Positions 4,264-63,055 of a stretch of 64,000 bases of DNA are shown in pieces; position 1 is the first letter of the stretch; each line of letters begins with the position of its first letter. The notes below the pieces were generated by a model. It saw only the letters and a list, made by a program, of their open reading frames with translations, had not been told where the DNA came from and ran no database searches. This DNA is from Saprospiraceae bacterium (GTDB lineage: Bacteria; Bacteroidota; Bacteroidia; Chitinophagales; Saprospiraceae), in assembly GCA_041749255.1 (NCBI GenBank), contig JBGTBR010000056.1, positions 38,621 to 102,620 on the forward strand. Reading direction: 5' to 3'. The translations under genes were made by a program, and so were the position numbers.

Positions 4264-4333
4264 GTTATACCATCTGTAAAAGGTGATGTGAGGATGAACC
4301 ACTTCCCAAAGCCTCTTACAGCGAAATTTAAAA

Positions 4334-4420
4334 ATTACGAATTACGAATGATGCTTTAATCACAAAAAAAAATGTAAAGGACACATTATCTCGTAATTCG
4401 TAATTGATAAATCGTAATTG
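4334..4420. repeat. ATTACGA heptamer repeats forming a 14-bp inverted repeat; probable bidirectional terminator
   Basis: ATTACGAATTACGA (4334-4347) is the perfect reverse complement of TCGTAATTCGTAAT (4391-4404). A further CGTAATTG copy follows. The locus sits between the convergent sucA and beta-barrel genes. Confidence 0.6.
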
Positions 4421-4445
4421 AAAGTACTCTCTATTCTAAATGTAG

Positions 4446-5345
4446 TTAATTTTCTTTTCTGCTTTTAACCGTAAAAACCCGGCTAATATTAAAACCAAAA
4501 TGAATGTCTCCATCTTCCCATCTACCTCTTGATTCGGTAATAAATCCCTTTTCTATCATGGAAGTACTGTTGGTAAAGTGAAGTTGGAAAACATGACCTC
4601 CGGTTTCAATATCGAATCCCAATGACAGAGAATTGGTAAATTGATTATCTAGTTGGTCGGGCAATACGTAAATATATTCAGCATTTAAAGCAACTCTTTT
4701 AGACAATTTAATTCTGCCCCCGGCTCCAAGAGCGTAGACATCATTGCTTTCCTGCAGTGTTGCGACTAAATTTCGATGCACAACCGTTGGGCTTAACTGA
4801 AGTGTAAACGAGTCACTAAATTTCCTGCCTAAAATCATCTGAAAAGTGTAATATAACCTGGAGCTAAAAAAATTATCTCTTTCCGGAATGGGCCACCTGA
4901 GAGTCTGTATGGCCGTTGTGGTTAAAAGGGCAGCTGAAAAGGGAAAACTTCTCTTGCCACTGCTTTGTCTTAAAAATTTCCATTTGAAATAACCGTCATA
5001 CGTTTTCTGAAAACTACTCCTGCCCAGTCCGATCATTATATTATCATTAAGACCATAATCAAAACCAAATCTTACTGAGGAATTATCTAAACCAAATAAT
5101 TCATAAAATCCTCCACTTATAAAACCAAACCTATGGGAAATTTTGAAATCTAAAACGCCTCCAGCCGTATTTTCTAATGAATGAAGATTGATAACGCGAT
5201 TGGTTTTGAAGCTCGCATCCGCATAATCAGTGATCTCTTCCTCTTCTATAAGTGAAAGTAAATCAGTGCCTTCCTGAGAAACCAAAGTTGAAACAAGGCT
5301 ATTAAATACTAGAAAAATTAAAGCTATAAATTTCAATGTTTGCAT
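4446..5345 (-). CDS. Outer-membrane beta-barrel protein (DUF5777-like)
   Basis: It has a signal peptide, alternating hydrophobic beta-strand patterning, and a C-terminal aromatic segment (HFGFNISRVF). The family assignment is from memory of RefSeq naming. Confidence 0.55.
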   Translation of the reverse strand: MQTLKFIALIFLVFNSLVSTLVSQEGTDLLSLIEEEEITDYADASFKTNRVINLHSLENTAGGVLDFKISHRFGFISGGFYELFGLDNSSVRFGFDYGLNDNIMIGLGRSSFQKTYDGYFKWKFLRQSSGKRSFPFSAALLTTTAIQTLRWPIPERDNFFSSRLYYTFQMILGRKFSDSFTLQLSPTVVHRNLVATLQESNDVYALGAGGRIKLSKRVALNAEYIYVLPDQLDNQFTNSLSLGFDIETGGHVFQLHFTNSTSMIEKGFITESRGRWEDGDIHFGFNISRVFTVKSRKEN

Positions 5346-22788: not shown

Positions 22789-24393
22789 CTATTTAGAATC
22801 ATTAGCTATAGTTGAAGATTCCTCAACATCATTTTCAATACTGATTAGTTTTTCAAACTTTTTAATTTGATCATGAAAATTACTTTTCCTCCTGTCAATA
22901 ACAGTCAGATCAATGTTCTTATATTTAGCATTTTCTTCAAAATCCTCTATAATATCTATCACATCATGATCTATATTTACAGTATCAGAAGCATCCAGTA
23001 TTACTTTTGATCCACGTGGAATGGCAGCGAGCGTTTTTTGTATACTTGCTTTATTTAGGAAAGTAACCTCTTCTGACAATTTTAAATGGATTGCATCATC
23101 ATGATGTTCTTCTAACACGAGGAAAGGCGTTTTGTAATTATCCATCAATATATAAAAGATGGCTACTACCATACCTATACCGATCCCCATCAACAGATCG
23201 GTAAAAACAATTCCAATAATGGTTATCATAAACGGGGCAAATTGTCTCCATCCCAGTTTATACATGGCTTTAATCATAGAAGGTTTAGCGAGCTTATACC
23301 CTACCACAATAAGTATCACAGCCAATGTAGCCAAAGGGATCATATTGAGTATGCCGGGAATAAAAGCAACGCATACCAGGATTAATATACCATGGTACAA
23401 AGCGGCCATCTTAGTGCGACCACCAGACTGAATATTGGCAGAACTTCTTACGATAACCTGTGTTACTGGTATTCCTCCAATGAGACCTGAGATCATATTA
23501 CCAATACCTTGGGCTTTGAGCTCCAGATTAGTAGGAGTTACCCTTTTATAACGATCCAGTTTGTCAGTAGCCTCGACGCATAAGAGAGTTTCAAGACTTG
23601 CGATAATAGCTAAGGTAATAGCCGTAATATACACCTGGGGATTGCCAATGGCAGTGAAATCTGGCAAGGTAAACTGGCCAAAAAATTCTGTTACATTTCC
23701 GGCTTTTGGAAGTTGTACCATTTGCTGAGGAGCAAAGGCATACGAAGTTCCCTCAAATAAGACATAAATTACAATTCCACCAGCTACTGCGACCAAAGGT
23801 CCCTGGACATATTGAAGGGCTTTGATATTTTTTATAAATTTAGTTTCCCAGAGAATTAATACAAAAAAGGAGAATGCAGTGACTATAACCACACATGGAG
23901 ATAGTAGCTCAAAAGCTCTTTTAAGAATATTTATAGAATCGCCTGTTCGATCTTTTGCGAGGAATATAGCATCCATTTGATCGCCAAAATATCCAAGGGC
24001 AAAGGGAATTTGCTTGATGATGATAATTATCCCAATTCCAGCCAACATGCCTTTAATAACAGAATTGGGAAAGTAATACCCTATAATACCCGCTTTAGCA
24101 AATCCTAAGGCTACCTGGAGGATTCCAGCTATAAAAGTGGCCAACAAAAATATTTCGAAGGTGCCCAGATCCTGAATTGCTGTCAATACTATAACTGCCA
24201 ATCCAGCTGCAGGGCCACTGACTCCAAGTGCAGACCCACTGATGAGAGTAACCACTATACCACCCACTATACCGGCAATAATACCGGAAAACAATGGTGC
24301 TCCGGAAGCCAATGCTATTCCCAGACATAATGGTACAGCGACCAGGAAAACTACAATACCGGCAGGAAAGTCGTATTTAAAGTGCTTAAACAT
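22789..24393 (-). CDS. SulP-family inorganic anion transporter with C-terminal STAS domain
   Basis: About 11 hydrophobic helices, the SulP signature region (IVRSSANIQSGGRTKMA), and a STAS-like tail. Confidence 0.9.
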   Translation of the reverse strand: MFKHFKYDFPAGIVVFLVAVPLCLGIALASGAPLFSGIIAGIVGGIVVTLISGSALGVSGPAAGLAVIVLTAIQDLGTFEIFLLATFIAGILQVALGFAKAGIIGYYFPNSVIKGMLAGIGIIIIIKQIPFALGYFGDQMDAIFLAKDRTGDSINILKRAFELLSPCVVIVTAFSFFVLILWETKFIKNIKALQYVQGPLVAVAGGIVIYVLFEGTSYAFAPQQMVQLPKAGNVTEFFGQFTLPDFTAIGNPQVYITAITLAIIASLETLLCVEATDKLDRYKRVTPTNLELKAQGIGNMISGLIGGIPVTQVIVRSSANIQSGGRTKMAALYHGILILVCVAFIPGILNMIPLATLAVILIVVGYKLAKPSMIKAMYKLGWRQFAPFMITIIGIVFTDLLMGIGIGMVVAIFYILMDNYKTPFLVLEEHHDDAIHLKLSEEVTFLNKASIQKTLAAIPRGSKVILDASDTVNIDHDVIDIIEDFEENAKYKNIDLTVIDRRKSNFHDQIKKFEKLISIENDVEESSTIANDSK

Positions 24394-24939
24394 ATAAATA
24401 TTTTTTAATATTTGTTAATTTTTGAAAATAAGAACTATATGAAGTATTTAAATAAATTTATAAGAGAGGATAATGAAATATCGCCAACAAATAATGCATC
24501 ATTTTCTGTCTTCCTTTAATTCCAAAAAATTATACTTTGTCATATTTGAATATTTCTGTAACTGGCTGGTTTCCATTTTTTTTAAATCCATCTATCCCAA
24601 TAGGAAGTTGTGGAAGGTTGGATTTTCTTTCATTTTTCAAAACAAATTATTAAAATAATTCTTGCATTAAAACTACATGAGTAATAACCACAAATTTAAT
24701 AGTAATGCTTCTATAAATGAAAGTTATACTAAAAAGTTTAATTTTACTCTCCTATTTTAACAGATTTTTAACAAAAAAGAAATTGCCCTGCGAATTCAAC
24801 AATTTATCACCATTGATTTTGTTTAAAATAAATGGTTTCCCGCGATGAAAATATCATTTTTGCATTTTATTACCGGCTTTTAAAAAAGCACTGAACAAAA
24901 CAAATCCAGGTGATATTACATCATTAAAAACATTATACA

Positions 24940-26388
24940 TTGGGAAACAAAGTAAAAATTACCATCGCTAAAGGTGATGGAATCGGTGAAGAGATCATGA
25001 ATGTCTGTTTGGACATTATCAAAAAATCGGGTGCTCCGGTTGAATTTGAAGAAATTCAGGTAGGCAAAGAAGTATACCTTAGAGGTATTGAATCGGGAAT
25101 TCCGGACTATGCGTGGGAAGTCATGTCGCGCAATAAAGTATTATTAAAGGGTCCTATAACTACGCCTCAAGGAGGCGGATACAAAAGTCTTAATGTGACC
25201 ATCAGAAAAACAATGGGTTTGTTTGCAAACGTAAGACCTGCCCATTCCTTCGACCCATTCGTTCGCACCCATTTTCCACATATGGATTTGGTTGTGATCC
25301 GAGAAAACGAAGAGGATCTTTATGCCGGAATCGAACATCAACAAACACCTGAAGTTGTTCAATGTCTTAAGTTGGTTTCCAGACCTGGAAGTGAAAAGAT
25401 CATTCGATATGCATTTGAATATGCAAAAGCATATGGAAGAAAGAAAGTCACTTGTATGACAAAAGATAATATCATGAAACATACCGATGGGTTGTTTCAT
25501 CAGATTTTTGACGAAGTAAGATTAGAGTACCCAGAAATCGATAGTGAACACTATATTATTGATATAGGAGCAGCCAGACTAGCCAACACACCTGAAAAAT
25601 TTGATGTTATTGTAACACTCAATTTATATGGTGATATCATTTCCGACATCACCGCAGAAGTTTCGGGTTCTGTTGGGCTGGGAGGTTCTGCGAATATAGG
25701 TGAAAACTTTGCCATGTTTGAGGCTATTCACGGCTCAGCACCAGATATCGCTGGAAAAAATGTCGCTAACCCAAGCGGTTTAATTCAGGGAGCTTGTTTG
25801 ATGTTGGTGCATGTAGGAATTCCGGAATATGCGGCTAAAATACAAAATGCCCTGTACAAAACCATTGAAGATGGAATCCATACTGCCGACCTGAAAAGTG
25901 CCCACTCTGAAGAAATTGTAGGTACAAAAGAGTTTGGTCAGGCTGTTATTAAGCGTCTTGGCATGTTGCCCGACAAGATTCGACCCATGCGCATTTCAAA
26001 TCATAAGATCAATATCAAATTAAAAAAGAGAGTTCGGCCCTCTAAGAAGTTGGTTGGTGCGGATATATTCATAGACTGGGATGAGGCTGACAGGGATCCT
26101 GATATACTGGGACAACAGCTAGAAAAAATAACCAATGAGGATTTGCAACTTAAAATGATAACCAACCGCGGAGTAAAGGTATATCCCGAAGGACGGAAAG
26201 AAACGTTTTGCTCTGATCACTGGCGATGCAGATATGTGTCTAAAGCAAATGATAAAAAGGAAATTTCTCAAGCTGCCATAATTAAGTTATTGGGAGATTT
26301 AGTGAAAAAAGGGCCAGGTTTTATAAAAGTTGAAAATCTCTATCTGTTTGATGGAGTCAGAGGTTATTCTTTAGGGCAAGGAGAATAG
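24940..26388 (+). CDS. icd: Isocitrate dehydrogenase (isocitrate/isopropylmalate dehydrogenase family) with a ~140-aa C-terminal extension
   Basis: TTG start. Motifs SLNVTIRK, VVIRENEEDLYAGIEH, NLYGDIISD and HGSAPDIAGKNVANP are present. Confidence 0.85.
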   Translation: MGNKVKITIAKGDGIGEEIMNVCLDIIKKSGAPVEFEEIQVGKEVYLRGIESGIPDYAWEVMSRNKVLLKGPITTPQGGGYKSLNVTIRKTMGLFANVRPAHSFDPFVRTHFPHMDLVVIRENEEDLYAGIEHQQTPEVVQCLKLVSRPGSEKIIRYAFEYAKAYGRKKVTCMTKDNIMKHTDGLFHQIFDEVRLEYPEIDSEHYIIDIGAARLANTPEKFDVIVTLNLYGDIISDITAEVSGSVGLGGSANIGENFAMFEAIHGSAPDIAGKNVANPSGLIQGACLMLVHVGIPEYAAKIQNALYKTIEDGIHTADLKSAHSEEIVGTKEFGQAVIKRLGMLPDKIRPMRISNHKINIKLKKRVRPSKKLVGADIFIDWDEADRDPDILGQQLEKITNEDLQLKMITNRGVKVYPEGRKETFCSDHWRCRYVSKANDKKEISQAAIIKLLGDLVKKGPGFIKVENLYLFDGVRGYSLGQGE

Positions 26389-26447
26389 TTTCCATTGGTA
26401 TTGCAGGATGCATAATTTGAGTTTAACACATATTTTAATCCAAAACA

Positions 26448-27725
26448 ATGAATCCACCTTTAGCGGAAAGAATGCGGCCAACCACTCTCAATGAATTTGA
26501 AGGGCAACAGCATCTTACCGGTGAAGGATCGGTACTCAAAAAAACTATTGAGAATGGTAATATTCCTTCCTTTATATTGTGGGGACCTCCAGGCGTAGGA
26601 AAAACCACTCTGGCATTTATCATCTCTCAGACCTTAAAGAGACCTTTCTATAGCCTGAGTGCGATCAATTCCGGTGTAAAAGATATAAGAGAAGCCATAG
26701 ATAAAGCCAAAAAACAGCAATTTTTTAACCGCCCCAATCCGATTTTATTTATAGATGAGATACACCGGTTTAGTAAATCACAACAGGATGCCCTGTTGGG
26801 GGCAGTAGAAAAAGGCATTATCACTCTAATTGGTGCAACAACAGAAAATCCATCTTTTGAAGTCATACCAGCTCTATTATCGAGATGCCAGGTATATATC
26901 ATGAATCCTTTAAGTGTCGAGGAACTTATACGCTTAGTAAATAAAGCCATTAAAACGGATGATGAGTTTAAAAACAGAAATATTACCATTGAATCCTATA
27001 AAGCACTTATCAGGTTTTCAGGTGGAGATGCAAGAAAACTGCTCAACAGCCTGGAGATAGTGGCAAGAAAGAATTTGGCTTCAGATCCATTGGTCATAAC
27101 TGACGAAATGGTCCAGGAGAGTATACAGCAAAATATGGCCTTATACGACAAGGCCGGTGAACAGCATTACGATATCATCTCAGCATTTATAAAATCCATA
27201 AGAGGATCAGATCCTAATGCTGCAGTCTATTATCTTGCCAGGATGATTGAAGGAGGAGAAGACCCTCGCTTTATATGTCGTAGAATGGTTATTTCCGCAT
27301 CTGAGGACATCGGTATGGCTAATCCTAATGCTCTCTTGTTGGCCAATGCATGTTTTGATGCCGTTCATAATATAGGTATGCCTGAAGGTCGTATCGTTAT
27401 GAGCCAGGTCGCCATTTATCTTGCTTGCTCCCCAAAAAGCAATACATCATATATAGCCATTAATGAAGCAGTCAATTCAGTTAAAAAAACCGGAAACCTA
27501 CCTGTTCCCCTCCATTTAAGAAATGCCCCAACGCAGCTTATGAAGTCTCTTGATTATGGAAAAGACTACCAATATGCCCATGATTTTACCCATAATTTTG
27601 TCGACATGGAAATGCTGCCCAAAGAAATTTCTGGTAGCGCTTTCTACCATCCTGGAAAGAATAATGCTGAAGATAATATTAGGGAAAGGTTAAAAAGTTT
27701 ATGGAAAGAAAAATACGGGTACTAA
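26448..27725 (+). CDS. rarA: Replication-associated recombination protein A (AAA+ ATPase)
   Basis: [34 protein letters not shown] and [18 protein letters not shown] motifs. Confidence 0.93.
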
Positions 27726-27881
27726 TAAACCCATATCAATAGCCAGTCAAGTCTGTTAAGGGTAAGGGTAAGGTTGAGGTTGAGGTTGAGTCCAAGGTTT
27801 CGTCTTCGGAAGGAGAAGTTGAGAAGGAGAGCTTAAAGGTGAGAGGGCCAGGTTGAGGTTGAGGAGTTGAGGAGTTGAGAA

Positions 27882-28022
27882 GTCATTGGCTTCGCGTCAT
27901 TTGGCTACGCCGCCATTTGCTCTATTCCGTCATTTGCGCTACGCGCGTAATCTTGTTATGAATGGATCCTATTGCCAACTGCATACTGCATACTGCCCAC
28001 TGTCAATGCCAACTGTATACTG
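27882..28022 (+). repeat. Core A copy 1 (conserved non-repetitive core plus flanking GTCATT and CTGCATA repeats)
   Basis: Contains GCTACGCGCGTAATCTTGTTATGAATGGATCCTATTGCCAACTGCATACTGC, which differs from copy 2 at about 4 positions by eye. Confidence 0.85.
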
Positions 28023-28424
28023 TTACCAGCTACGAGATTCGACCTTAATAGGTCTGAAAGTCGAAGGTCTGAAAGTCGAAGGTCTGAAAGTCGGAAGGTC
28101 TGAAAGTCTGAAAGTCGGAAGGTCTGAAAGTCTGAAAGTCGGAAGGTCTGAAAGTCTGAAAGTCGGAAAATTGAAAATTGAAAATTGAAAATTGAAAATT
28201 GAAACTTGAAACTTAACAAAAACAAAAACTAAAACCAAAACAAAAACCAAAACTAAAACCAAAACAAAAACAAAAACAAAAACAAAAACTAAAACTAAAA
28301 CTAAAACTAAAACCATTTGCAACCAGCTACGAGCTATGAGCTAAAATGGTGTGAAAGTCGAAGATCTGAAAGTCTTAAGGTCGAGGTTAAGGATAAGGTT
28401 GAGATTGAGGTTGAGGTTGAGAAG

Positions 28425-28555
28425 GTCATTTGCTGCGCGTCATTGGGCTTCGTCGTCATTTGCGCTACGCGCGTTATTTTGTTATGAAAGGAACCTATTG
28501 CCAACTGCATACTGCCAACTGCATACTGCCCACTGCTAACTGCCAACTGCATACT
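28425..28555 (+). repeat. Core A copy 2
   Basis: Contains GCTACGCGCGTTATTTTGTTATGAAAGGAACCTATTGCCAACTGCATACTGC. Confidence 0.85.
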
Positions 28556-28791
28556 TGACAGAAGTTCGAACGCTCTGAAAGTCGTAAGGTCTAAGGTCAG
28601 AAATCCGAGGTTAAGGCATAATCCTGCGAACTATCAACTACGAGCTACGAACTAATGCTAATTGCTAAAAGCTAATAGCTTCGATAGAACTTTTTGTATT
28701 ACCTTTGGTTTTTAGATATTAATCAAACGAGCTGGTGAATAGAATGTTTTCACCTAATATCCTATCGTTTAAAATGAAATTAGACTGAATT

Positions 28792-29934
28792 ATGAGCCCG
28801 GAAGTATTGGAAAATCTTGACATGATCACAAAGAGCGCAAAAGAATTTGCGGAAAAAGAAATTCTACCTTACGTAATGGAATGGGATGAATCACAGTATT
28901 TTCCAAAAGAACTTATGCATAAAATGGGAGATTTTGGATTTTTAGGTGCGTTGGTACCAGAAGAATATGGAGGAACGGGATTAGGCTATCAGGAATACGT
29001 GTCTATTATAGTTGAAATTGCAAAGGTTTGCGGCTCCATTGGTTTATCGGTAGCAGCGCATAATTCTCTTTGTACCGGACATATCCTTGCATTTGGTAAT
29101 GAAGATCAAAAAAGAAAATACTTGCCACTTCTCGCAGCCGGAAAATGGATCGGAGCGTGGGGATTGACTGAGGCCAATACCGGATCTGATGCTATGCGGA
29201 TGAGTTGTGTTGGTGAAAAGGATGGAGAATATTTTGTCATTAATGGATCAAAAAACTGGATTACACATGGCATATCAGGTGATGTAGCTGTAGTGTTAGT
29301 GCGAACCGGAGAATTACTGGATAGTCGGGGTATTTCAGCTTTTATTATAGAAAGAGACACCCCTGGTTTCAAAGCAGGTAAGAAAGAGAATAAACTGGGA
29401 ATGCGCGCATCTGAAACATCTGAAATGATTTTTGAAAACTGCCGTGTTCACAAATCCCAAATGCTGGGGAATGAAGGAGAAGGTTTTATTCAGGCAATGA
29501 AAGTACTGGATGGTGGTCGTATCAGTATTGCTGCACTATCCATTGGCATTGCCAAAGGAGCATATGAAGCTTCGGTACGATACGCACAGCAAAGAGAACA
29601 GTTCGGAAAACCTATTGCCAGTTTCCAGGCCATTTCATTCAAACTTGCCGATATGGCTACGAAAATCCAGGCCGCTGAACTTCTCACCCGGAAAGCTGCC
29701 GATATGAAAAACGAAAAAGAAGATGTCACTACCCAAAGTGCCATGGCTAAGTATTACGCTTCTGAAATCTGTGTAGAAATAGCTACTGACGCCATTCAGG
29801 TATTTGGAGGCTATGGTTATACCAAGGAGTTTCCAGTAGAGAAATACTTTAGAGATTCAAAACTTTGTACCATCGGCGAAGGTACCAGTGAAATACAGAA
29901 ACTTGTTATTTCGAGAAATATTTTAAGAGAATAG
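28792..29934 (+). CDS. Acyl-CoA dehydrogenase
   Basis: 380 aa. GAWGLTEANTGSDA, QFGKPIASFQA and GGYGYTKEFPVEKYFRDSK motifs are present. Confidence 0.9.
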   Translation: MSPEVLENLDMITKSAKEFAEKEILPYVMEWDESQYFPKELMHKMGDFGFLGALVPEEYGGTGLGYQEYVSIIVEIAKVCGSIGLSVAAHNSLCTGHILAFGNEDQKRKYLPLLAAGKWIGAWGLTEANTGSDAMRMSCVGEKDGEYFVINGSKNWITHGISGDVAVVLVRTGELLDSRGISAFIIERDTPGFKAGKKENKLGMRASETSEMIFENCRVHKSQMLGNEGEGFIQAMKVLDGGRISIAALSIGIAKGAYEASVRYAQQREQFGKPIASFQAISFKLADMATKIQAAELLTRKAADMKNEKEDVTTQSAMAKYYASEICVEIATDAIQVFGGYGYTKEFPVEKYFRDSKLCTIGEGTSEIQKLVISRNILRE

Positions 29935-36557: not shown

Positions 36558-36641
<84 letters not shown>

Positions 36642-36806
36642 CTGAAAGTCTTCAAATAGCAAAGAAATTTATTGGGTTTTTAAGAATTTTGTAACCCTAT
36701 TCACCTTTAACAATATTCAATTGATCTTGAAGTTGGCTCAATCTCAACCTCATTTTAGCTGGTAGCTCGTATCTGGTAGCTCGTAGTGATTAGTTCGTAG
36801 CTCGTA

Positions 36807-36896
36807 GCAGTATGCAGTATGCAGTATGCAGTTGGCAATAAGTTCCTTTCATAACAAAATAACGCGCGTAGCGCAAATGACGACGAAGTCAAATGA
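36807..36896 (-). repeat. Core A copy 3 (inverted)
   Basis: The reverse complement reads GCTACGCGCGTTATTTTGTTATGAAAGGAACTTATTGCCAACTGCATACTGC, one mismatch from copy 2 by eye. Confidence 0.85.
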
Positions 36897-36956
36897 ACTC
36901 TCACCTCCTCACCTTAACTCTTGACTTTCCGACCTTCCGACTTTCAGACTTTCAGA

Positions 36957-37474
36957 CCATTTTGCTCGTAGCTCGTAGCTGGTTACAAATGGTTTTAGTT
37001 TTAGTTTTAGTTTTGGTTAATTTTCAATTTTCCGACTTCCGACTTTCAGACTTTCAGACCTTCGACCTTCAGACCTTCGACTTTCCGACTTTCGACCTTC
37101 CGACCATTTTAGCTCGTAGCTCGTAGCTGGTTGCAAATAGTTTTAGTTTTAGTTTTAGTTAATTTTCAATTTTCAATTTCCGACTTTCCGACCTTCCGAC
37201 TTTAAGACTTTCAGACCATTTTGCTCGTAGCTCGTAGCTGGTTGCAAATGGTTTTAGTTTTAGTTTTGGTTTTGGTTAATTTTCAATTTTCCGACTTTCG
37301 ACTTTCAGACTTTCGACTTTCAGACTTTCGACTTTCAGACCTTCAGGCCATTTTAGCTCGTAGATGGTAGCTCGTAGCTGGCAGCAAATGGTTTTAGTTT
37401 TAGTTTTAGTTTTGGTTTTTCATTGGTTAACTTTCAACTTTCAACTTTCGACCTTCAGACTTTCGACCTTCAGA
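36957..37474. repeat. Higher-order tandem array of four superunits (about 147, 112, 132 and 127 bp)
   Basis: Each unit starts with CCATTTT(G/A)(G)CTCGTAG..GCTGG(T/C)(T/A)(G/A)CAAATGG at 36957, 37104, 37216 and 37348. TTTTAG/TTTTGG, AATTTTC and (C/A)GACTTTC runs follow. Confidence 0.9.
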
Positions 37475-37529
37475 CCGTTTACCGTTCACTGCTCACCATT
37501 CACCGTTTTTCTACCTGCCAAAGGCGAAG
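37475..37529 (+). repeat. Module B copy 1
   Basis: CCGTTTACCGTTCACTGCTCACCATTCACCGTTTTTCTACCTGCCAAAGGCGAAG. Confidence 0.8.
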
Positions 37530-37994
37530 ACCTCAACCTTGCCTCAATCTTAGCACGTAAGACTTTCCCAGATGAGAATGAGTTAATTATATCAACCGGT
37601 CTTTACCTTTAGGATTTTGTGCATTACATTTTGGGAAACCGACTTCCTTAAATGATAAAATACCATCATATTTTCGATAAACAAAATGCATACATCCACA
37701 TGATTACATATACTTTGGATAAAAACAAAAATTTAAACCGCTTTGGTCAAATTTTAACACAGGATAAAATTAAATGATCAAACTTTTATATTAAACTATA
37801 AATCAAATATTTAAAGTCCAATATTACCTACAAAAACTTTTTCCAGCTATGTAAATAATTTCTTTCAAAAATTTTATGGGGAATTTAAAAGGCAGCGTAC
37901 CGGATAAATAATAAGTTAATATTAAACGTCCCAGTTTCAACTGGGTCCGTTGATGCAAAATTTTATTCAATCACTCAATTTTAAATTTAACCAG

Positions 37995-42985: not shown

Positions 42986-44107
42986 ATGATAAAAATACAA
43001 AGCCTGGTTCTCGTATATTTAGTATATGGTGTAGCAGGTATAAGTATAATCGGACAAGAAAATATTGCGAATACAGGTATCAGCGGTGTTTATGAAGTGG
43101 TTCTGGCTGTTGACGATATCGACTATGCCAGGGCATATTGGAATGAATTTGGGTTCAGGGTAGTAGATACTGCTATTGTTGATGCAGACCAGGCTTTGTT
43201 GCTATACAATGTGAACAGCCGGCTGTACAGTTACAGGTTGCAAAATGGTAATATCGATAGTCATGGATTGTTGCGACTTATAAAATGGGAAACATCATTA
43301 GGTCGGGGTGTAGGTTATACCACGCCGGAGGCCATCGGTTCAAGAATGTCTGTGATGAAGACACAGGATATTATGAGACTCTACGATGTATATAGTTTTT
43401 TACGAAGTCAGGGTCAGAAATGGCTACCTACAGAGCCCATTACATACGATTTATTCGGATTAAACGATGGTGGTAAAGACTTCCTGAAACGACCCATATT
43501 GGTAAGAGAGTCTGCTGTGTATGGAGAAATGATCAATCATGTGTTTTTTCAACGCTACGGATATGAAATTCCAGGTTATGGCTCGATCCATCCCAACACT
43601 CCTTTAAAAACCAGTGAATTTACCCATCATGAATTTTTTATTAAGGCACCTTCATTGGATGTATTAGATTATATAAGTGAAGTTCTGGGTTTTCAACCTG
43701 AAAAGGAAGGGGTAGTACCGGAAGAATGGCGAAAAGAATCTAAAAGAGGATTTATGATGGATCCCGGATCTACTCATATGTATAAAGGATTTGTATCGCC
43801 GAATAATATTTGCGGTAAGCTGAAATTTTATTTGCTGTCGGAAATAAAGCCAGATAGATCAAAGCATCTGAGGATGGGAGAACTCGGCAATACCATGCAT
43901 ACTTTATTTGTCGCAGATATCGTCCAACTAAGAAATCTGGCTGAAAATTATCAGGGACTGACGGTAAGTTCTATCCGTGCCAATGAATTTGGCGAACAAT
44001 CTTTTACTATCCTGGATAGTGTAGGAATACTTTGGCAAATCATAGAAAAGAAAGAAACCTTGCACAAACCGGAAACAGTGCTTCGATTTGAATTTACAAA
44101 TAATTGA
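42986..44107 (+). CDS. Secreted hypothetical protein with glyoxalase/VOC-like modules
   Basis: An N-terminal hydrophobic signal, then GVYEVVLAVDDIDYARAYWNEFGFRVVD, which resembles the first beta-alpha-beta of the VOC fold. The assignment is weak. Confidence 0.4.
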   Translation: MIKIQSLVLVYLVYGVAGISIIGQENIANTGISGVYEVVLAVDDIDYARAYWNEFGFRVVDTAIVDADQALLLYNVNSRLYSYRLQNGNIDSHGLLRLIKWETSLGRGVGYTTPEAIGSRMSVMKTQDIMRLYDVYSFLRSQGQKWLPTEPITYDLFGLNDGGKDFLKRPILVRESAVYGEMINHVFFQRYGYEIPGYGSIHPNTPLKTSEFTHHEFFIKAPSLDVLDYISEVLGFQPEKEGVVPEEWRKESKRGFMMDPGSTHMYKGFVSPNNICGKLKFYLLSEIKPDRSKHLRMGELGNTMHTLFVADIVQLRNLAENYQGLTVSSIRANEFGEQSFTILDSVGILWQIIEKKETLHKPETVLRFEFTNN

Positions 44108-44153
44108 AAACCAACTTAGAAGTTAGCTCGTAGTTTTTAGCTTTTATCAGTTC

Positions 44154-44241
44154 GCAGTATGCAGTATGCAGTTGACATTTGGTAATAGGATCCTTTCATA
44201 ACAAAATAACGCGCGTAGCCAAATGAAGCGAAGCCAATGAC
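44154..44241 (-). repeat. Core A copy 4 (inverted, most diverged)
   Basis: The reverse complement reads GCTACGCGCGTTATTTTGTTATGAAAGGATCCTATTACCAAATGTCAACTGCATACTGC. Confidence 0.8.
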
Positions 44242-44300
44242 TTCTCAATTCCTCAACCTTAACTTCTGACTTTCAGACTTTCGACCTTCAGACCTTCAGG

Positions 44301-44356
44301 CCGTTTACCGCTCACTGCTCACCGTTCACCGTTTTTTCAACCTGCCGAAGGCGAAA
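44301..44356 (+). repeat. Module B copy 2
   Basis: CCGTTTACCGCTCACTGCTCACCGTTCACCGTTTTTTCAACCTGCCGAAGGCGAAA. Confidence 0.8.
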
Positions 44357-44553
44357 CCCTCAACCTCATTTTAGCTAGTAGCTCGTAGTTGACAAATGAT
44401 TTTGGTTTTAGTTTTGGTTTTAGTTAACTTTCAACTTTCAAACTTTCAAACTTTCAACTTGTTCCCGACCTTCAGACTTTCCGACCTTCAGACTTTCCGA
44501 CCTTCAGACTTTCGACTTTCAGACTTTCGAATTTCAAACTTTCGACCATCTGA

Positions 44554-44607
44554 CCGTTTACCGTTCACTGCTCACCGTTCACCGTTTTTTCGACCTGCCG
44601 AAGGTAA
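44554..44607 (+). repeat. Module B copy 3
   Basis: CCGTTTACCGTTCACTGCTCACCGTTCACCGTTTTTTCGACCTGCCGAAGGTAA. Confidence 0.8.
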
Positions 44608-44632
44608 AAACCTTAACCTTAACCTTAGCCTT

Positions 44633-45127
44633 TCAATCCTTGCTCTTCATTTCATCATAACATATCTGTAAACGGTAAATTTCTATCGTAATATGCGAAT
44701 AAGAAATCGCACTAAATAAGGTAATGACCATGAATAAAGGCAAATTGGAATTAAGCATAGCCCAGCCGGCTGCAATAATGCAGGCGATGACTCCTCCTAT
44801 TAATAGTATCCCATTCATCTGCTGCCATGACTCCATAGATTGCAATTTTAGTTCTATGTCTCTGCTTTCAGGAATGGAATCAGAGGAAATTTCACGGCTA
44901 ATCTTATAGTACAGAAATGAATTGAACATCATAATTGCAAATCCAGCAATGATCAGATAAGGGTAGAGTGCAAAATACGTTGTTTGATTTAAAAACTTTT
45001 GAATAGCAAAGCCGATAATCAGTATGATGAGACCAGACATCAAAAAGTAAACAGATATCTTTGTACTTCCTTTCAGATACGTAACATATCTTTTCCTCCA
45101 ATCCATTTTTTCTAAAGGATCCATCAT
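44633..45127 (-). CDS. Hypothetical four-helix membrane protein
   Basis: Four hydrophobic helices. The ATG at 45127 overlaps the acylphosphatase stop codon as ATGA, which suggests translational coupling. Confidence 0.55.
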   Translation of the reverse strand: MMDPLEKMDWRKRYVTYLKGSTKISVYFLMSGLIILIIGFAIQKFLNQTTYFALYPYLIIAGFAIMMFNSFLYYKISREISSDSIPESRDIELKLQSMESWQQMNGILLIGGVIACIIAAGWAMLNSNLPLFMVITLFSAISYSHITIEIYRLQICYDEMKSKD

Positions 45128-45396
45128 CGTTTTATTTCGAATGAGGTTGGAATTACGCTCATATCCCAATTATCGATCTGTACCTCAGCTACCAGGGATG
45201 CCGGTGATCCGGAATGACACCATTTTACCATCTTGCGTACAGCTTCACTCTCTCCGGCAACGTATACTTTTACGCTACCATCGGGTAAATTCATTACATA
45301 ACCGGTCAAGCCAAGCTCCAATGCCTTTTCCCGGGTGTAATGCCTGAAAGCTACTCCCTGCACTCGTCCTGAAATCCGCAATTGTACTTTATTCAT
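45124..45396 (-). CDS. acyP: Acylphosphatase
   Basis: 90 aa. RISGRVQGVAFRHYT and GYVMNLPDGSV motifs are present. Confidence 0.88.
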   Translation of the reverse strand: MNKVQLRISGRVQGVAFRHYTREKALELGLTGYVMNLPDGSVKVYVAGESEAVRKMVKWCHSGSPASLVAEVQIDNWDMSVIPTSFEIKR

Positions 45397-57005: not shown

Positions 57006-57137
57006 CAATTTTAGTCCTACACCAATTCACCCCACATAGTTCCCTTCTATTGTATGGGTATACGAATTCTCACTTTCCCGCTTTCCATAGGAACCTTTCC
57101 AATTATTTTAAACATTATTATTTTTAAACGCGGAAAT

Positions 57138-57695
57138 ATGGAAGAGGATATCACATCAAAGGATTTGAAAGAAATGCTCAGTGAATTGATAAAGAGCCAA
57201 AAAGAAACTGACGTCAAATTCAAAGAAACTGATGTCAAATTTAAGGAAACAGATAAAAGAATAAAAGAGGCATTTGATTTATTCACCTCTCAATGGGGAA
57301 AGTTAATAGAATCATTGGTGGAAGGTGACCTCCTCCGGCTGTTGAATGAAAGGGGAATTTATGTGAGAGATACTTCTCTTAGAAGAAAAGGCAGCCATAA
57401 TGGTCATAACTACGAATTTGATATCATTGCACACAATGTAAGGGAAGTCGTCATTGTGGAGGTCAAAACCACATTAAGGGTTAGTCAGGTTAAGCACTTT
57501 TTAAAAAAGCTTCAGAGCATTAAAAAATGGATAAGAGAATACGAAAACTTCAAAATTTACGGTGCTGTAGCTTTCCTAACTGCTGAAGAAGCCAGCGATC
57601 TGTTTGCTGAAAAAAATGGATTATTTATTATCAAAGCAACCGGAGATTCCGCTAGCATTATTAATAAGAACGATTTTGTACCCTATGTATTTTAA
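57138..57695 (+). CDS. Coiled-coil plus PD-(D/E)XK nuclease-fold protein (DUF3782-like)
   Basis: YEFDIIAHNVREVVIVEVK gives D-x12-E-V-K. An alternative upstream ATG at 57054 would add a hydrophobic N-terminus. Confidence 0.6.
   Translation: MEEDITSKDLKEMLSELIKSQKETDVKFKETDVKFKETDKRIKEAFDLFTSQWGKLIESLVEGDLLRLLNERGIYVRDTSLRRKGSHNGHNYEFDIIAHNVREVVIVEVKTTLRVSQVKHFLKKLQSIKKWIREYENFKIYGAVAFLTAEEASDLFAEKNGLFIIKATGDSASIINKNDFVPYVF
57201..57253 (+). repeat. In-frame 21-nt tandem repeat (about 2.5 copies) encoding KETDVKF
   Basis: AAAGAAACTGACGTCAAATTC / AAAGAAACTGATGTCAAATTT / AAGGAAACAGA. Confidence 0.85.
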
Positions 57696-63009: not shown

Positions 63010-63013
63010 ACCA

Positions 63014-63055
63014 TTTTCAATTACGATTTATCAATTACGAATTACGATTTACGAG
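63014..63055. repeat. ATTACGA-type heptamer repeat patch
   Basis: TTTTCAATTACGATTTATCAATTACGAATTACGATTTACGAG overlaps the last codons of purN. Confidence 0.6.

Follow-up and report, generated by a model that had tools for sequence, protein, structure and literature searches.

Composite islands of short tandem arrays with shared cores in the intergenic DNA of a Saprospiraceae bacterium, a candidate satellite-like family

Simple repeats of the heptamer type have reportedly been noted in bacterial intergenic DNA since 1990, and the STRR sequences of cyanobacteria are said to go back to Mazel et al. in that year. To our knowledge, the origin and the role of such bacterial heptamer clusters are still unexplained. 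BIMEs and BOX elements are extragenic mosaics in which a few motifs occur in a fixed order with a variable number of internal modules, and they are non-coding and non-autonomous. BIMEs, which go together with RAYT (Y1) transposases, have imperfect palindromic REP units of 20-40 nt as their building blocks, while the modules of BOX elements are 45-60 nt long and are not simple repeats. From the intergenic DNA of Bacteroidetes, MacGregor 2015 (PMC4679880) described heptamer arrays of different kinds that lie together in clusters; these clusters are absent in close relatives and break assemblies, and "larger assemblages of heptamer repeats" were reported in the same work for Gramella, Aequorivita and Elizabethkingia. 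Heptamer simple repeats are over-represented in intergenic DNA according to Mrazek 2007, as summarised in PMC4679880, and also according to Rehm 2015 (PMC4692102) for Xanthomonas and Nostoc, where the repeats exhibit an asymmetry towards the upstream ORF, as they do in the loci described here. Three STRR heptanucleotides are present in Calothrix PCC 7601 (PMC4692102).

We analysed a stretch of 64,000 nucleotides (the window) from a Saprospiraceae bacterium, in which three loci, designated A, B and C, consist of ordered short tandem arrays (Table 1). As in the known long simple sequence repeats (LSSR) and heptamer clusters, head-to-tail arrays of 5- to 11-nt units, several kinds of them side by side, occupy intergenic DNA near the 3' end of the upstream gene. 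Their length and sequence likewise vary among close relatives, the closest of which may have none, assemblies stop inside them, and their function is not established. The preliminary description of this DNA did not recognise the phenomenon, and in this respect it has to be corrected, as heptamer array clusters had already been described in Bacteroidetes (PMC4679880). The present arrays differ from these clusters in being tied to three cores in a fixed-order composite that is found at several loci, with the whole mosaic being homologous. The set of units is also different, neither the TAACTGA arrays of Beggiatoaceae nor the CCCCAGT arrays of cyanobacterial STRR being found with up to 2 mismatches allowed, and the array density at locus A is extreme, with seven exact array classes per kb, which was matched by only 3 of 238 array-seeded public loci.

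With regard to the other described systems, the cyanobacterial STRR sequences are also families of tandem heptanucleotides that are dispersed between the genes of a filamentous bacterium and have no known function. In contrast to the islands, they belong to another phylum, have other units, and each family comprises one heptamer and not a multi-array composite with cores. The islands share with BIMEs and BOX elements the organisation as non-coding, non-autonomous mosaics with a fixed order and a variable module number, but they exhibit no palindromic units and consist mainly of 5- to 8-nt arrays. CRISPR loci consist of 23-55 nt repeats with unique spacers of similar length, whereas the arrays of the islands are head-to-tail without spacers, as determined by TRF. 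The view that the islands are not REP/BIME, ERIC-like, CRISPR or MITE sequences is upheld as far as it is testable, with no palindromic units or terminal inverted repeats, no repeat-spacer layout and, on the three loci, nothing in Rfam at E<=1; at the gathering threshold, Rfam returned the tRNA only. Inverted heptamer arrays followed by T8, which resemble true terminators, were observed at positions 4560-4700 of the public contig L007 and 4333-4421 of the window. The arrays of these terminators are like those of the islands and occur in the same genomes or family at gene 3' ends. There, however, pairs of inverted arrays make one long hairpin with a T-run, whereas the mosaic islands have a strictly one-stranded polarity and form hairpins solely in the short cores J and K.

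Locus A lies downstream of rarA, the homologues of which, from Saprospiraceae, are annotated as replication-associated recombination protein A. The region 27757-28684 is a mosaic of tandem arrays with units of 5-17 nt, as determined by TRF, and the first array is located 31 nt past the rarA stop codon. Every feature of the preliminary description was recovered where it had been placed. The degenerate H core of this locus is 62-64% identical to the H cores of loci B and C and was missed by the H profile. With copy numbers taken as assembled, TRF identified 3.9 copies of a 17-nt unit in the X array (27882-27944), an ACTGCAT array at 27978-27996, 15 copies of period 8 or 5 copies of period 24 (90% matches) in the O array, 6.6 copies of period 7 in the T array (28166-28211, 97% matches) and a 6/24-nt array in module P (28215-28313). 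The G-free stretch that had been noticed in module P is exactly 110 nt long and is the longest G-free run of the window, in which about 1e-5 such runs are expected. The CCATTT...AAATGG sequence, previously read as a junction, is instead the recurring module J, which has six copies in the window and always sits between an AAAAC-type array and an octamer array. The second repeat series spans 28375-28680 according to TRF. The spacer had been described as two tandem copies, which is correct for the S-X-K-Q block, present twice, but not for the O-T-P-J block, of which only one complete copy is present.

The right end of the element at locus A is at 28683-28684, and from about 28683 onwards the sequence is again homologous to that of L004, the relative without arrays. 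The conserved block that follows contains a TAnnTTTG-type box, which we take to be a promoter on the basis of the Bacteroidetes -7 consensus, and TAnnTTTG is found 30-140 nt upstream of many genes of the window. TAnnTTTG boxes inside the elements were also considered as promoters and were rejected; all five coincide with TAGTTTTG, the unit of the P array when read antisense, and are therefore indistinguishable from repeat sequence.

Table 1. Coordinates of the three array islands and of their neighbours in the window
Feature	Position	Strand	Basis or remark
rarA/mgsA gene, left neighbour of locus A	26448-27725	+	Pfam MgsA_C, AAA_assoc_2, AAA
Locus A, module S: (TAAGGG)2.8 and (AGGTTG)3.3, both hexamer arrays	27757-27790	+	TRF, module map
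Locus A, degenerate core H (TTCGTCTTCGGAAGG and decayed heptads)	27791-27849	+	Alignment
Locus A, modules S and X: (GGTTGAGG/AGTTGAGG)n, then (GTCATTkGCTnCGC) units of 15-17 nt	27850-27944	+	TRF, alignment
Locus A, core K copy 1: 5-bp GC hairpin TGCGCTACGCGCG and T-rich tail, with palindrome ACGCGCGT, then TTATGAAtGGAtCCTATTGCCA	27935-27977	+	Terminator-like match; nhmmer E=1.7e-21
Locus A, modules Q and R: heptads (ACTGCAT/ACTGCCC/ACTGTAT), then CAGCTACGA	27978-28051	+	TRF, module map
Locus A, module O: GTCTGAAA/GTCGGAAG octamers grouped into higher-order units of 16-24 nt	28050-28169	+	TRF
Locus A, module T: (GAAAATT)x5 and GAAACTT variants	28166-28214	+	TRF
Locus A, module P: AAAAC/CTAAAA/CCAAAA array, G-free stretch	28209-28318	+	TRF and composition count
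Locus A, core J: CCATTTGCAACC(AGCTACG-like)2 ..AAAATGG hairpin	28314-28350	+	One of six J copies
Locus A, second series: S array and X units after a short O remnant	28351-28470	+	TRF, alignment, module map
Locus A, core K copy 2	28461-28503	+	nhmmer E=2.6e-22; terminator-like scan, palindrome search
Locus A, 7.4 copies of Q (TGCCAAC/TGCATAC), O and S units in degenerate form, then R (AACTACG/AGCTACG/AGCTAAT heptads)	28499-28684	+	TRF
Conserved block outside the element: putative acyl-CoA dehydrogenase promoter (TTTTTG ... TAccTTTG)	28684-28715	+	Identical in L004
Gene to the right of locus A: acyl-CoA dehydrogenase	28792-29934	+	Pfam Acyl-CoA_dh_N/M/1
tRNA-Leu(CAG), left neighbour of locus B	36558-36642	+	ARAGORN, Rfam
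Locus B, inverted: S H (O T P J)x4 O S X K Q R S	36735-37560	-	Module map, nhmmer profiles
Locus B, K	36833-36875	-	nhmmer
Locus B, J copies	36949-37000, 37096-37148, 37208-37259, 37340-37399	-	nhmmer
Locus B, H	37470-37543	-	nhmmer
ORFs flanking locus C, convergent	42986-44107 (+), 44633-45169 (-)		Locus C occupies the entire spacer
Locus C, inverted: S H O T P J S H O S X K Q R	44108-44640	-	Module map, nhmmer profiles
Locus C, K	44180-44230	-	nhmmer
Locus C, H copies	44296-44368, 44549-44624	-	nhmmer
Locus C, J	44358-44407	-	nhmmer

The inverted recurrence of the modules in the same order, previously reported for 36.7-37.6 and 44.1-44.6 kb, was found again by two approaches. The 11-mers shared with locus A are concentrated in just two regions, 36.7-37.5 kb and 44.1-44.6 kb, where they always lie on the opposite strand, and the module map gives the common order S-H-(O-T-P-J)n-O-S-X-K-Q-R for all three loci, with ten module types. 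The unit periods are 7 for Q, R, T and the H heptads, 6 for S, 5-6 for P, 8 for O and 15-17 for X, with higher-order 24-nt units in the O and P arrays and with invariant positions inside the units, such as GTCnGAAr and ACTGCnn. Strict tandem periodicity accounts for 44%, 46% and 24% of the three loci, compared with a background mean of 0.04% and a maximum of 4% in 900-nt windows. The non-repetitive cores H, J and K (40-75 nt) are 83-93% identical between loci. Profiles of these cores matched K four times, J six times and H three times, every match lying within the three loci, with nhmmer E values from 1e-11 for the weakest J copy to 1e-23, and the unique parts of the three loci differ by about 15%. 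Because a single module order is combined with cores that are 83-93% identical, the three loci, which lie inside 17 kb of one genome, are by their sequences copies of one composite element and not separate slippage events, in agreement with what the preliminary description had proposed.

Heptamer arrays of any sequence arise often, and short-read assemblies break at these loci. Nevertheless, we consider it barely credible that the islands have no common ancestry and are either hot spots of independent slippage or an artefact of assembly, as this reading is contradicted by the shared non-repetitive cores, by the identical order of ten modules and by the presence of an array at the same site in related genomes. 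The possibility of an assembly artefact, raised previously as a point to be checked, is unlikely because the divergence of about 15% between the unique parts could not be produced by a collapsed or chimeric assembly, and because a separate short-read contig matches. This contig (Logan), possibly from the same sample, is 100% identical to positions 23448-27910 of the window, matches the first 154 nt of the element exactly and stops within it.

The three islands together comprise about 2.3 kb, or 3.6% of the window, and sit only in gene-free space, from a stop codon to the next promoter or stop codon; locus C extends from stop codon to stop codon. Their orientation relative to the flanking genes is mixed, as the gene upstream of each of loci A and C runs in the direction of the element and locus B is antisense to both neighbours. 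Block duplication is seen both between loci and in tandem inside a locus: locus B exhibits super-units of 111-259 nt with 85-87% identity (TRF), and its O-T-P-J units are 76-90% identical to one another. In relatives with 92.5% and 89.7% rarA DNA identity, the element is found after rarA with S units that differ from those of the host, and their short-read contigs break within the element. The contigs of L002 and L003 have a like array with other units after rarA and end in that S array. The contigs L001 and L246 also terminate in arrays. The relative L004 (82.2% rarA DNA identity) has a 330-bp spacer without arrays and with an unrelated 220-bp filler in their place. The arrays thus change from one close relative to another. 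The closest homologue for locus C, with 75% identity, lies in another gene neighbourhood and was rejected as an orthologous site.

The occurrence at three intergenic sites in both orientations, the similar right ends of loci B and C (GAGCYAACTTC-AAG, read by eye), the copy adjoining a tRNA gene and the site without element in a relative would be in line with a mobile non-autonomous element, MITE- or REPIN-like, which is moved in trans by a distant transposase or RAYT and the arrays of which are cargo that was later expanded. We nevertheless judge such mobility to be quite unlikely. The loci exhibit neither terminal inverted repeats nor palindromic units, no target-site duplication is common to the flanks of the three loci, and the L004 site, with its different filler, is not a clean empty site. 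The 28 window proteins scanned, which are housekeeping or unassigned, include no transposase, integrase, reverse transcriptase or RAYT, and no mobility gene was found in the 64 kb. The copies vary by the number of blocks and not as whole units. The cores are also missing from viral, plasmid and phage collections. The K pattern CGCGCGTWATYTTGTTATGAAWGG gave 0 matches in species-representative genomes, metagenome contigs and viral contigs, and the H pattern gave 0 matches in viral contigs. In viral contigs, the J pattern matched nothing but a mini AGCTACG array that two nearly identical phage contigs carry, and blastn against plasmids and phages returned nothing relevant, only a 48-nt array match.

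We favour, with a probability of roughly 0.55, the explanation that the islands are a lineage-specific, non-coding, non-autonomous, satellite-like family that has spread by block duplication or gene conversion and has grown by slippage. Whole blocks would be copied to new intergenic sites, or homogenised, through homologous recombination or gene conversion, for which the shared arrays may supply the homology. Unequal crossing-over would amplify blocks locally, and replication slippage would expand, contract and diversify the arrays up to sequence that is under selection. The island DNA is probably near-neutral for the host, and its placement, from stop codon to promoter block at locus A and from stop codon to stop codon at locus C, fits the filling of neutral space. 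However, array types and order are kept although the copies have diverged by about 15%, which could equally mean selection for the architecture and not neutrality. With regard to coding capacity, the ORFs inside the loci are low-complexity. The 72-aa ORF across K has no homologue in the protein database, and the ORF across J, P, T, O and H has 4 low-complexity matches among 1.84 billion representatives. A small ORF from K (MKGTYCQLHTA...) was considered and rejected because the peptides diverge: the hand-translated copies agree over about 15 residues only, the divergence being attributed to frame shifts from 7-nt copy-number differences.

As far as can be judged from motifs and predicted folds, transcriptional punctuation is the most plausible effect of the islands. 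Core K exhibits a 5-bp GC stem followed by TTATTTTGTT on the sense strand, with a terminator-like match in three of the four copies, and the folding of its hairpin is at the level of shuffled sequences (z +0.18). The J core of locus A, the stem of which is AU-rich, has a folding energy of -11.1 kcal/mol on the sense strand and of -15.8 kcal/mol (z -3.5) on the antisense strand, where the hairpin is followed by the U-rich P array, (GUUUUA)n. J and K are thus predicted to be weak terminator-like hairpins that cover both directions. As a hairpin with a U-run is present on each strand, a transcript from either side would meet a terminator-like signal within a long stretch that is devoid of local self-complementarity.

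These motifs could also belong to a selected RNA or transcription device with functional arrays, such as a bidirectional terminator or insulator, a C-rich unstructured RNA for Rho loading, or a long unstructured UTR or ncRNA with protein-binding motifs. In the J stem, a paired change from C..G to T..A is observed at the outer position in locus C and a G-U-compatible variant in another copy. No inverted repeat of at least 10 nt within 200 nt was found in loci A and B, and at any distance only array-level pairs were found. One strand is 58-61% purine, the antisense strand contains more C than G, and module P is free of G on the sense strand. The persistence of array types and order at about 15% core divergence would also fit selection of this kind, as would the terminator-like inverted heptamer arrays with T8 in L007 and in the window and the altered promoter output caused by Nostoc heptamer repeats in reporter assays (bioRxiv 10.1101/2022.06.06.494920). 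We still consider such a device unlikely. Orientation with respect to the flanking genes is inconsistent, as locus B shows, the S array differs among relatives at about 90-92% rarA DNA identity, one relative copes with an array-free spacer, and the islands match no Rfam family. Across 240 public loci, with crude ORF calls, no clear strand preference relative to the flanking genes was observed (19 versus 19 for O, 18 versus 31 for Q).

The palindrome ACGCGCGT, perfect and GC-rich in a genome of 37% G+C, is confined to the K cores, with 4 matches compared with 0.08 expected. Together with the invariant positions of the units and the A-tract arrays T and P, it could suggest a DNA platform, on which sequence-specific or nucleoid-associated proteins bind the heptad and octad sites and the palindrome, with a role in chromosome organisation, a centromere-like role or a role in A-tract curvature. 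Heptad arrays are bound by proteins elsewhere, for example by SARP regulators (PMC5930380). In contrast, no candidate binding protein is linked to the islands, the unit periods of 5 to 8 nt are out of phase with the DNA helix, the arrays differ among relatives, and binding sites are not distinguishable from slippage products by the present data. This role therefore appears very improbable to us.

Searches in public sequences place single arrays in a wider context. More than 118 genomes contain ACTGCAT arrays, and single arrays are common across phyla; they are generic. In viral contigs, ACTGCAT arrays were found 7 times, compared with 3, 10 and 18 times for scrambled heptamers of the same composition. 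A cross-phylum "(ACTGNNN)n system", prompted by the ACTGCAT arrays and by ACTG-rich neighbour arrays, was rejected as unsupported because scrambled heptamers are equally or more frequent and because 5 of 27 loci amount to a weak, pseudo-replicated enrichment per locus. The unrelated metagenome contigs L143, L131 and L158 also contain similar islands of several arrays, each with cores of its own.

A more speculative reading, which we regard as improbable, is that the islands are a selected, programmatically built architecture in which ordered 5- to 8-nt sites surround three cores, and which would form a new class of bacterial "satellite". The sites might be read by sequence-specific proteins on single- or double-stranded nucleic acid; alternatively, a repeat-adding activity might be the writer, and insulation or chromosome organisation the use. 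If so, the islands of L143, L131 and L158 would indicate that this logic has arisen repeatedly.

The known clustering of bacterial repeats is extended here by a composite with cores, the novelty being that the arrays are tied to H, J and K in a fixed order across loci. The copies are therefore recognisable as homologous and can be counted, dated and compared. The family thus allows three questions to be tested, namely whether such clusters are neutral slippage products spread by recombination, whether they are mobile, and whether they are selected punctuation. As each copy interrupts the short-read assemblies of the lineage, the islands are also a hidden cause of fragmented metagenome-assembled genomes.

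With regard to loci A, B and C, the best-supported account is that they are copies of a lineage-specific, non-autonomous, satellite-like composite repeat, to which we assign a probability of roughly 0.55. With loci B and C oriented like locus A, labelling of the units by pattern matching distinguishes ten module types. The arrays are S (hexamers of the GGTTGA/GGTAAG type), O (octamers GTCTGAAA/GTCGGAAG), T (heptamers GAAAATT/GTTGAAA), P (units AAAAC/CTAAAA), X (units GTCATTTGCGCTACGC), Q (heptamers ACTGCAT/ACTGCCA) and R (AGCTACG-like heptamers). The unique cores are H (a 75-nt core, TTCGCCTTCGGCAGG, followed by an A-run and heptads of the GGTGAAC type), J (CCATTTGCAACC(AGCTACG)2-3..AAAATGG) and K (a 41-nt core, GCTACGCGCGTTATTTTGTTATGAAAGGAaCcTATTGCCAA).

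Coordinates and content of the composite loci and of other repeats
Feature	Sequence	Position	Strand	Setting or content
Locus A	window	27757-28684	+	spacer rarA / acyl-CoA dehydrogenase gene; S H S X K Q R O T P J O S X K Q (O S) R
Locus B	window	36735-37560	-	spacer tRNA-Leu / SusC-like gene; S H (O T P J)x4 O S X K Q R S
Locus C	window	44108-44640	-	fills the entire gap between the stop codons of two convergent ORFs; S H O T P J S H O S X K Q R
Small inverted arrays	window	4333-4421		(AATTACG)n ... (CGTAATT)n between convergent genes
tRNA-Leu trailer	window	36642-36662		CTGAAAGTC, a single O-type unit, orientation opposite to locus B O arrays
21-nt unit	window	57201-57250		AAAGAAACTGACGTCAAATTC, 2.4 copies, 89% matches, within ORF 57054-57695 (Tandem Repeats Finder)
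Multi-array island	L143	1000-1950		metagenome; L126 is the other strand
Multi-array island	L131	1200-1830		metagenome
Multi-array islands	L158	100-450, 10090-10450		metagenome
Heptad array	L059	4380-4880		~490 bp, purely GCAGTAA/GCAGTCG/GCAGTAT
Heptamer array	L059	1099-1180		(ATTTTAG)x11.7
Inverted arrays	L007	4560-4700		gene 3' end; (CAGTATG/CAGTTGG)n vs (ACTGCCA/ACTGCCT)n
Heptamer array	L007	5220-5290		gene 5' end; (GCAGTAT)6 immediately upstream of start codon
Phage array	L247, L248	9678-9704, 6435-6461		short intergenic CTACCAGCTACGAGCTACGAGCTACCAGCTGC array

In locus A, arrays run in unbroken series from 27757 to 28680 (Tandem Repeats Finder), and every unit listed in the preliminary description was seen on direct reading. 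The G-free run reported at 28209-28318 is exactly 110 nt long and is the longest in the window, with ~1e-5 such runs expected. Strict short-period self-similarity covers 44%, 46% and 24% of loci A, B and C, against a background mean of 0.04%. The reported inverted recurrence was also recovered: bulk 11-mer sharing with locus A is confined to 36.7-37.5 and 44.1-44.6 kb and involves the opposite strand throughout. The idea of two tandem copies within locus A holds for S-X-K-Q, of which there are two blocks (75% identical), and fails for O-T-P-J, of which a single complete block is present. The segment with CCATTT/AAATGG ends, formerly read as a junction between these copies, is module J, as its position in the module orders indicates: it occurs six times, each between P and O.

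The loci share this composite at the sequence level. In alignments of the unique parts, S-X-K-Q is 83-85% identical among the second copy in locus A and loci B and C, the 41-nt K core being ~93% identical between loci; S-H is 83-86% identical among locus B and the two copies in locus C, and the O-T-P-J units are 73-90% identical. Profiles detected exactly four copies of K, six of J (plus one degenerate) and three of H in the window (E values 1e-11 to 1e-23). That the loci are of independent origin, or an artefact, is scarcely credible. Each K copy has one instance of the palindrome ACGCGCGT, which gives four in the window against 0.08 expected. A role of the element as a DNA platform for protein binding is considered very unlikely. 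As 24-nt higher-order units are seen in the O and P arrays and super-units of 111-259 nt with 85-87% identity in locus B (Tandem Repeats Finder), the arrays were amplified in place. The trailer unit CTGAAAGTC is 74-81% complementary to the locus B O arrays across 19-21 nt, probably by chance. The 21-nt unit AAAGAAACTGACGTCAAATTC contains the palindrome TGACGTCA.

The window is core chromosome of the Saprospiraceae bacterium: its RarA homologues carry Saprospiraceae names, and its genes include a SusC/SusD pair, infB, nusA, rnr, icd and sucA. A scan of 28 window proteins revealed no mobility genes, the loci have no terminal inverted repeats, and transposition of the element, mobilised in trans, appears distinctly improbable. 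A short-read contig (SRR28170463) is identical to window 23448-27910 and terminates within module X. In relatives at 92.5% and 89.7% rarA DNA identity, contigs terminate at the same position in an S-type array of different units, and a relative at 82.2% has an array-free spacer of 330 bp. Homology to the latter ends with the rarA stop codon and is regained from 28683, in a conserved TAccTTTG-bearing block, so that the limits first proposed for locus A are the true limits of the element. Many window genes have TAnnTTTG, a match to the -7 promoter consensus of Bacteroidetes, 30-140 nt upstream. Elsewhere in the window, the cumulative GC skew reaches its minimum at ~24.4-24.9 kb, where a 547-bp spacer contains a AATATTTGTT repeat; genes are mostly on the minus strand from 4.4 to 24.4 kb and mostly on the plus strand from 24.9 kb. 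This may be a replication-origin-like strand switch.

A coding role for the loci is unlikely, since their ORFs are low-complexity, no relatives of the K-spanning ORF were found in the database, and copies of a short ORF starting in K, translated by hand, read differently beyond ~15 residues. For the ORF that runs through J, P, T, O and H, the only matches are four low-complexity repeat proteins. At the RNA level, the Rfam search suggested earlier matched no family to the loci, no local inverted repeats were found in loci A and B, and one strand has a purine share of 58-61%. The K sense strand carries a 5-bp GC stem followed by TTATTTTGTT, picked up in three copies by a terminator scan; its hairpin folds no better than shuffled sequence. 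Module J folds at -11.1 kcal/mol in sense and -15.8 kcal/mol (z -3.5) in antisense, array P, as U-rich (GUUUUA)n, comes immediately after it on the antisense strand, and one J copy shows a paired change (C..G to T..A) at the outer stem position. With these K sense and J antisense hairpins, each gene facing the element meets a hairpin and a U-run in its reading direction. The orientation of the element relative to genes is inconsistent, locus B being antisense to both neighbours. That the whole architecture is under selection for a transcription-level or RNA-level function is unlikely, if the strongest of the alternatives.

The small inverted arrays at 4333-4421 resemble a hairpin terminator. 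Their 31-mer CGTAATTCGTAATTGATAAATCGTAATTG recurs at 63013-63054, a short-read contig (L246, 4130-4167) terminates there, and these arrays thus look like a second small repeat that is dispersed in this genome. In L007, a Saprospirales metagenome-assembled genome, a membrane-protein gene has heptamer arrays at both ends, those at the 3' end forming a long hairpin, after which come T8 and a TAccTTTG box. From their sequences, the inverted heptamer-array pairs with a T-run in L007 and at 4333-4421 look like genuine terminators.

The K pattern has no match in 185,579 species genomes, JGI metagenomes and IMG/VR, and profile and pattern searches did not find H, J, K, X, T, P or S in ~2 Mb of fetched loci. 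Arrays taken singly are widely distributed: (ACTGCAT)2.7 occurs in more than 118 stretches of genomes that represent many phyla and (GTCTGAAA)2.4 in more than 120 metagenome contigs, both lower bounds. The Q and O units are not special in this respect, as three scrambled heptamers of ACTGCAT composition occur in 3, 10 and 18 viral contigs versus 7 for ACTGCAT. This accords with published accounts in which heptamer simple repeats are in excess generally (PMC4679880, PMC4692102). Locus A has seven exact array classes per kb, a density that just 3 of the 238 array-seeded loci attain. "Larger assemblages of heptamer repeats" have been described in intergenic regions of three Bacteroidetes, absent from their closest relatives and truncating contigs (MacGregor 2015, PMC4679880).

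A few other contigs (L143/L126, L131, L158) have multi-array islands of their own with their own cores. These islands combine octamers GTCTGAAA/GTCGGAAA with AGGGCAR, GCGAAGG, GACTGCC and other heptamers, their cores bear hairpins, one strand is purine-rich in each (read by eye), and the L143 island is present as a tandem duplicate. The arrays in L059, a Saprospiraceae metagenome-assembled genome, show that the family has at least one further member with long heptamer arrays. The CTACCAGCTACGAGCTACGAGCTACCAGCTGC array of two near-identical IMG/VR phage contigs (L247, L248) resembles module R and inner J, without the J stem or other modules. At GTCTGAAA-seeded metagenome loci, crude ORF calling gave a median ORF-end-to-array gap of 10-17 nt for co-oriented upstream ORFs and ~100 nt in the opposite orientation; such arrays may begin with the stop codon or even provide it, and the array's own TGA codons could produce this gap pattern. 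Units containing ACTG/CAGT make up 18-28% of heptamer arrays near seeds (L005-L242) against ~5.5% expected, an enrichment that is weak per locus (5/27) and unsupported by the scrambled-heptamer controls. Two STRR units also include this tetramer. So does TAACTGA (PMC4679880).

The element works like known long simple sequence repeat clusters and STRR-type arrays and has their general features, and it belongs to neither the STRR nor the TAACTGA family. Within the window it lacks the defining features of REP/BIME, MITE and CRISPR, as had been surmised. The composite is shared among loci, with block duplication, in-place amplification and turnover between relatives, and is confined to dispensable spacer DNA. 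The satellite-like repeat would spread by recombination or gene conversion, would grow by slippage, and may exert a modest terminator or insulator effect. The novelty is that an entire multi-array mosaic, held by unique cores, behaves as a single heritable unit, dispersed and fixed in its order.
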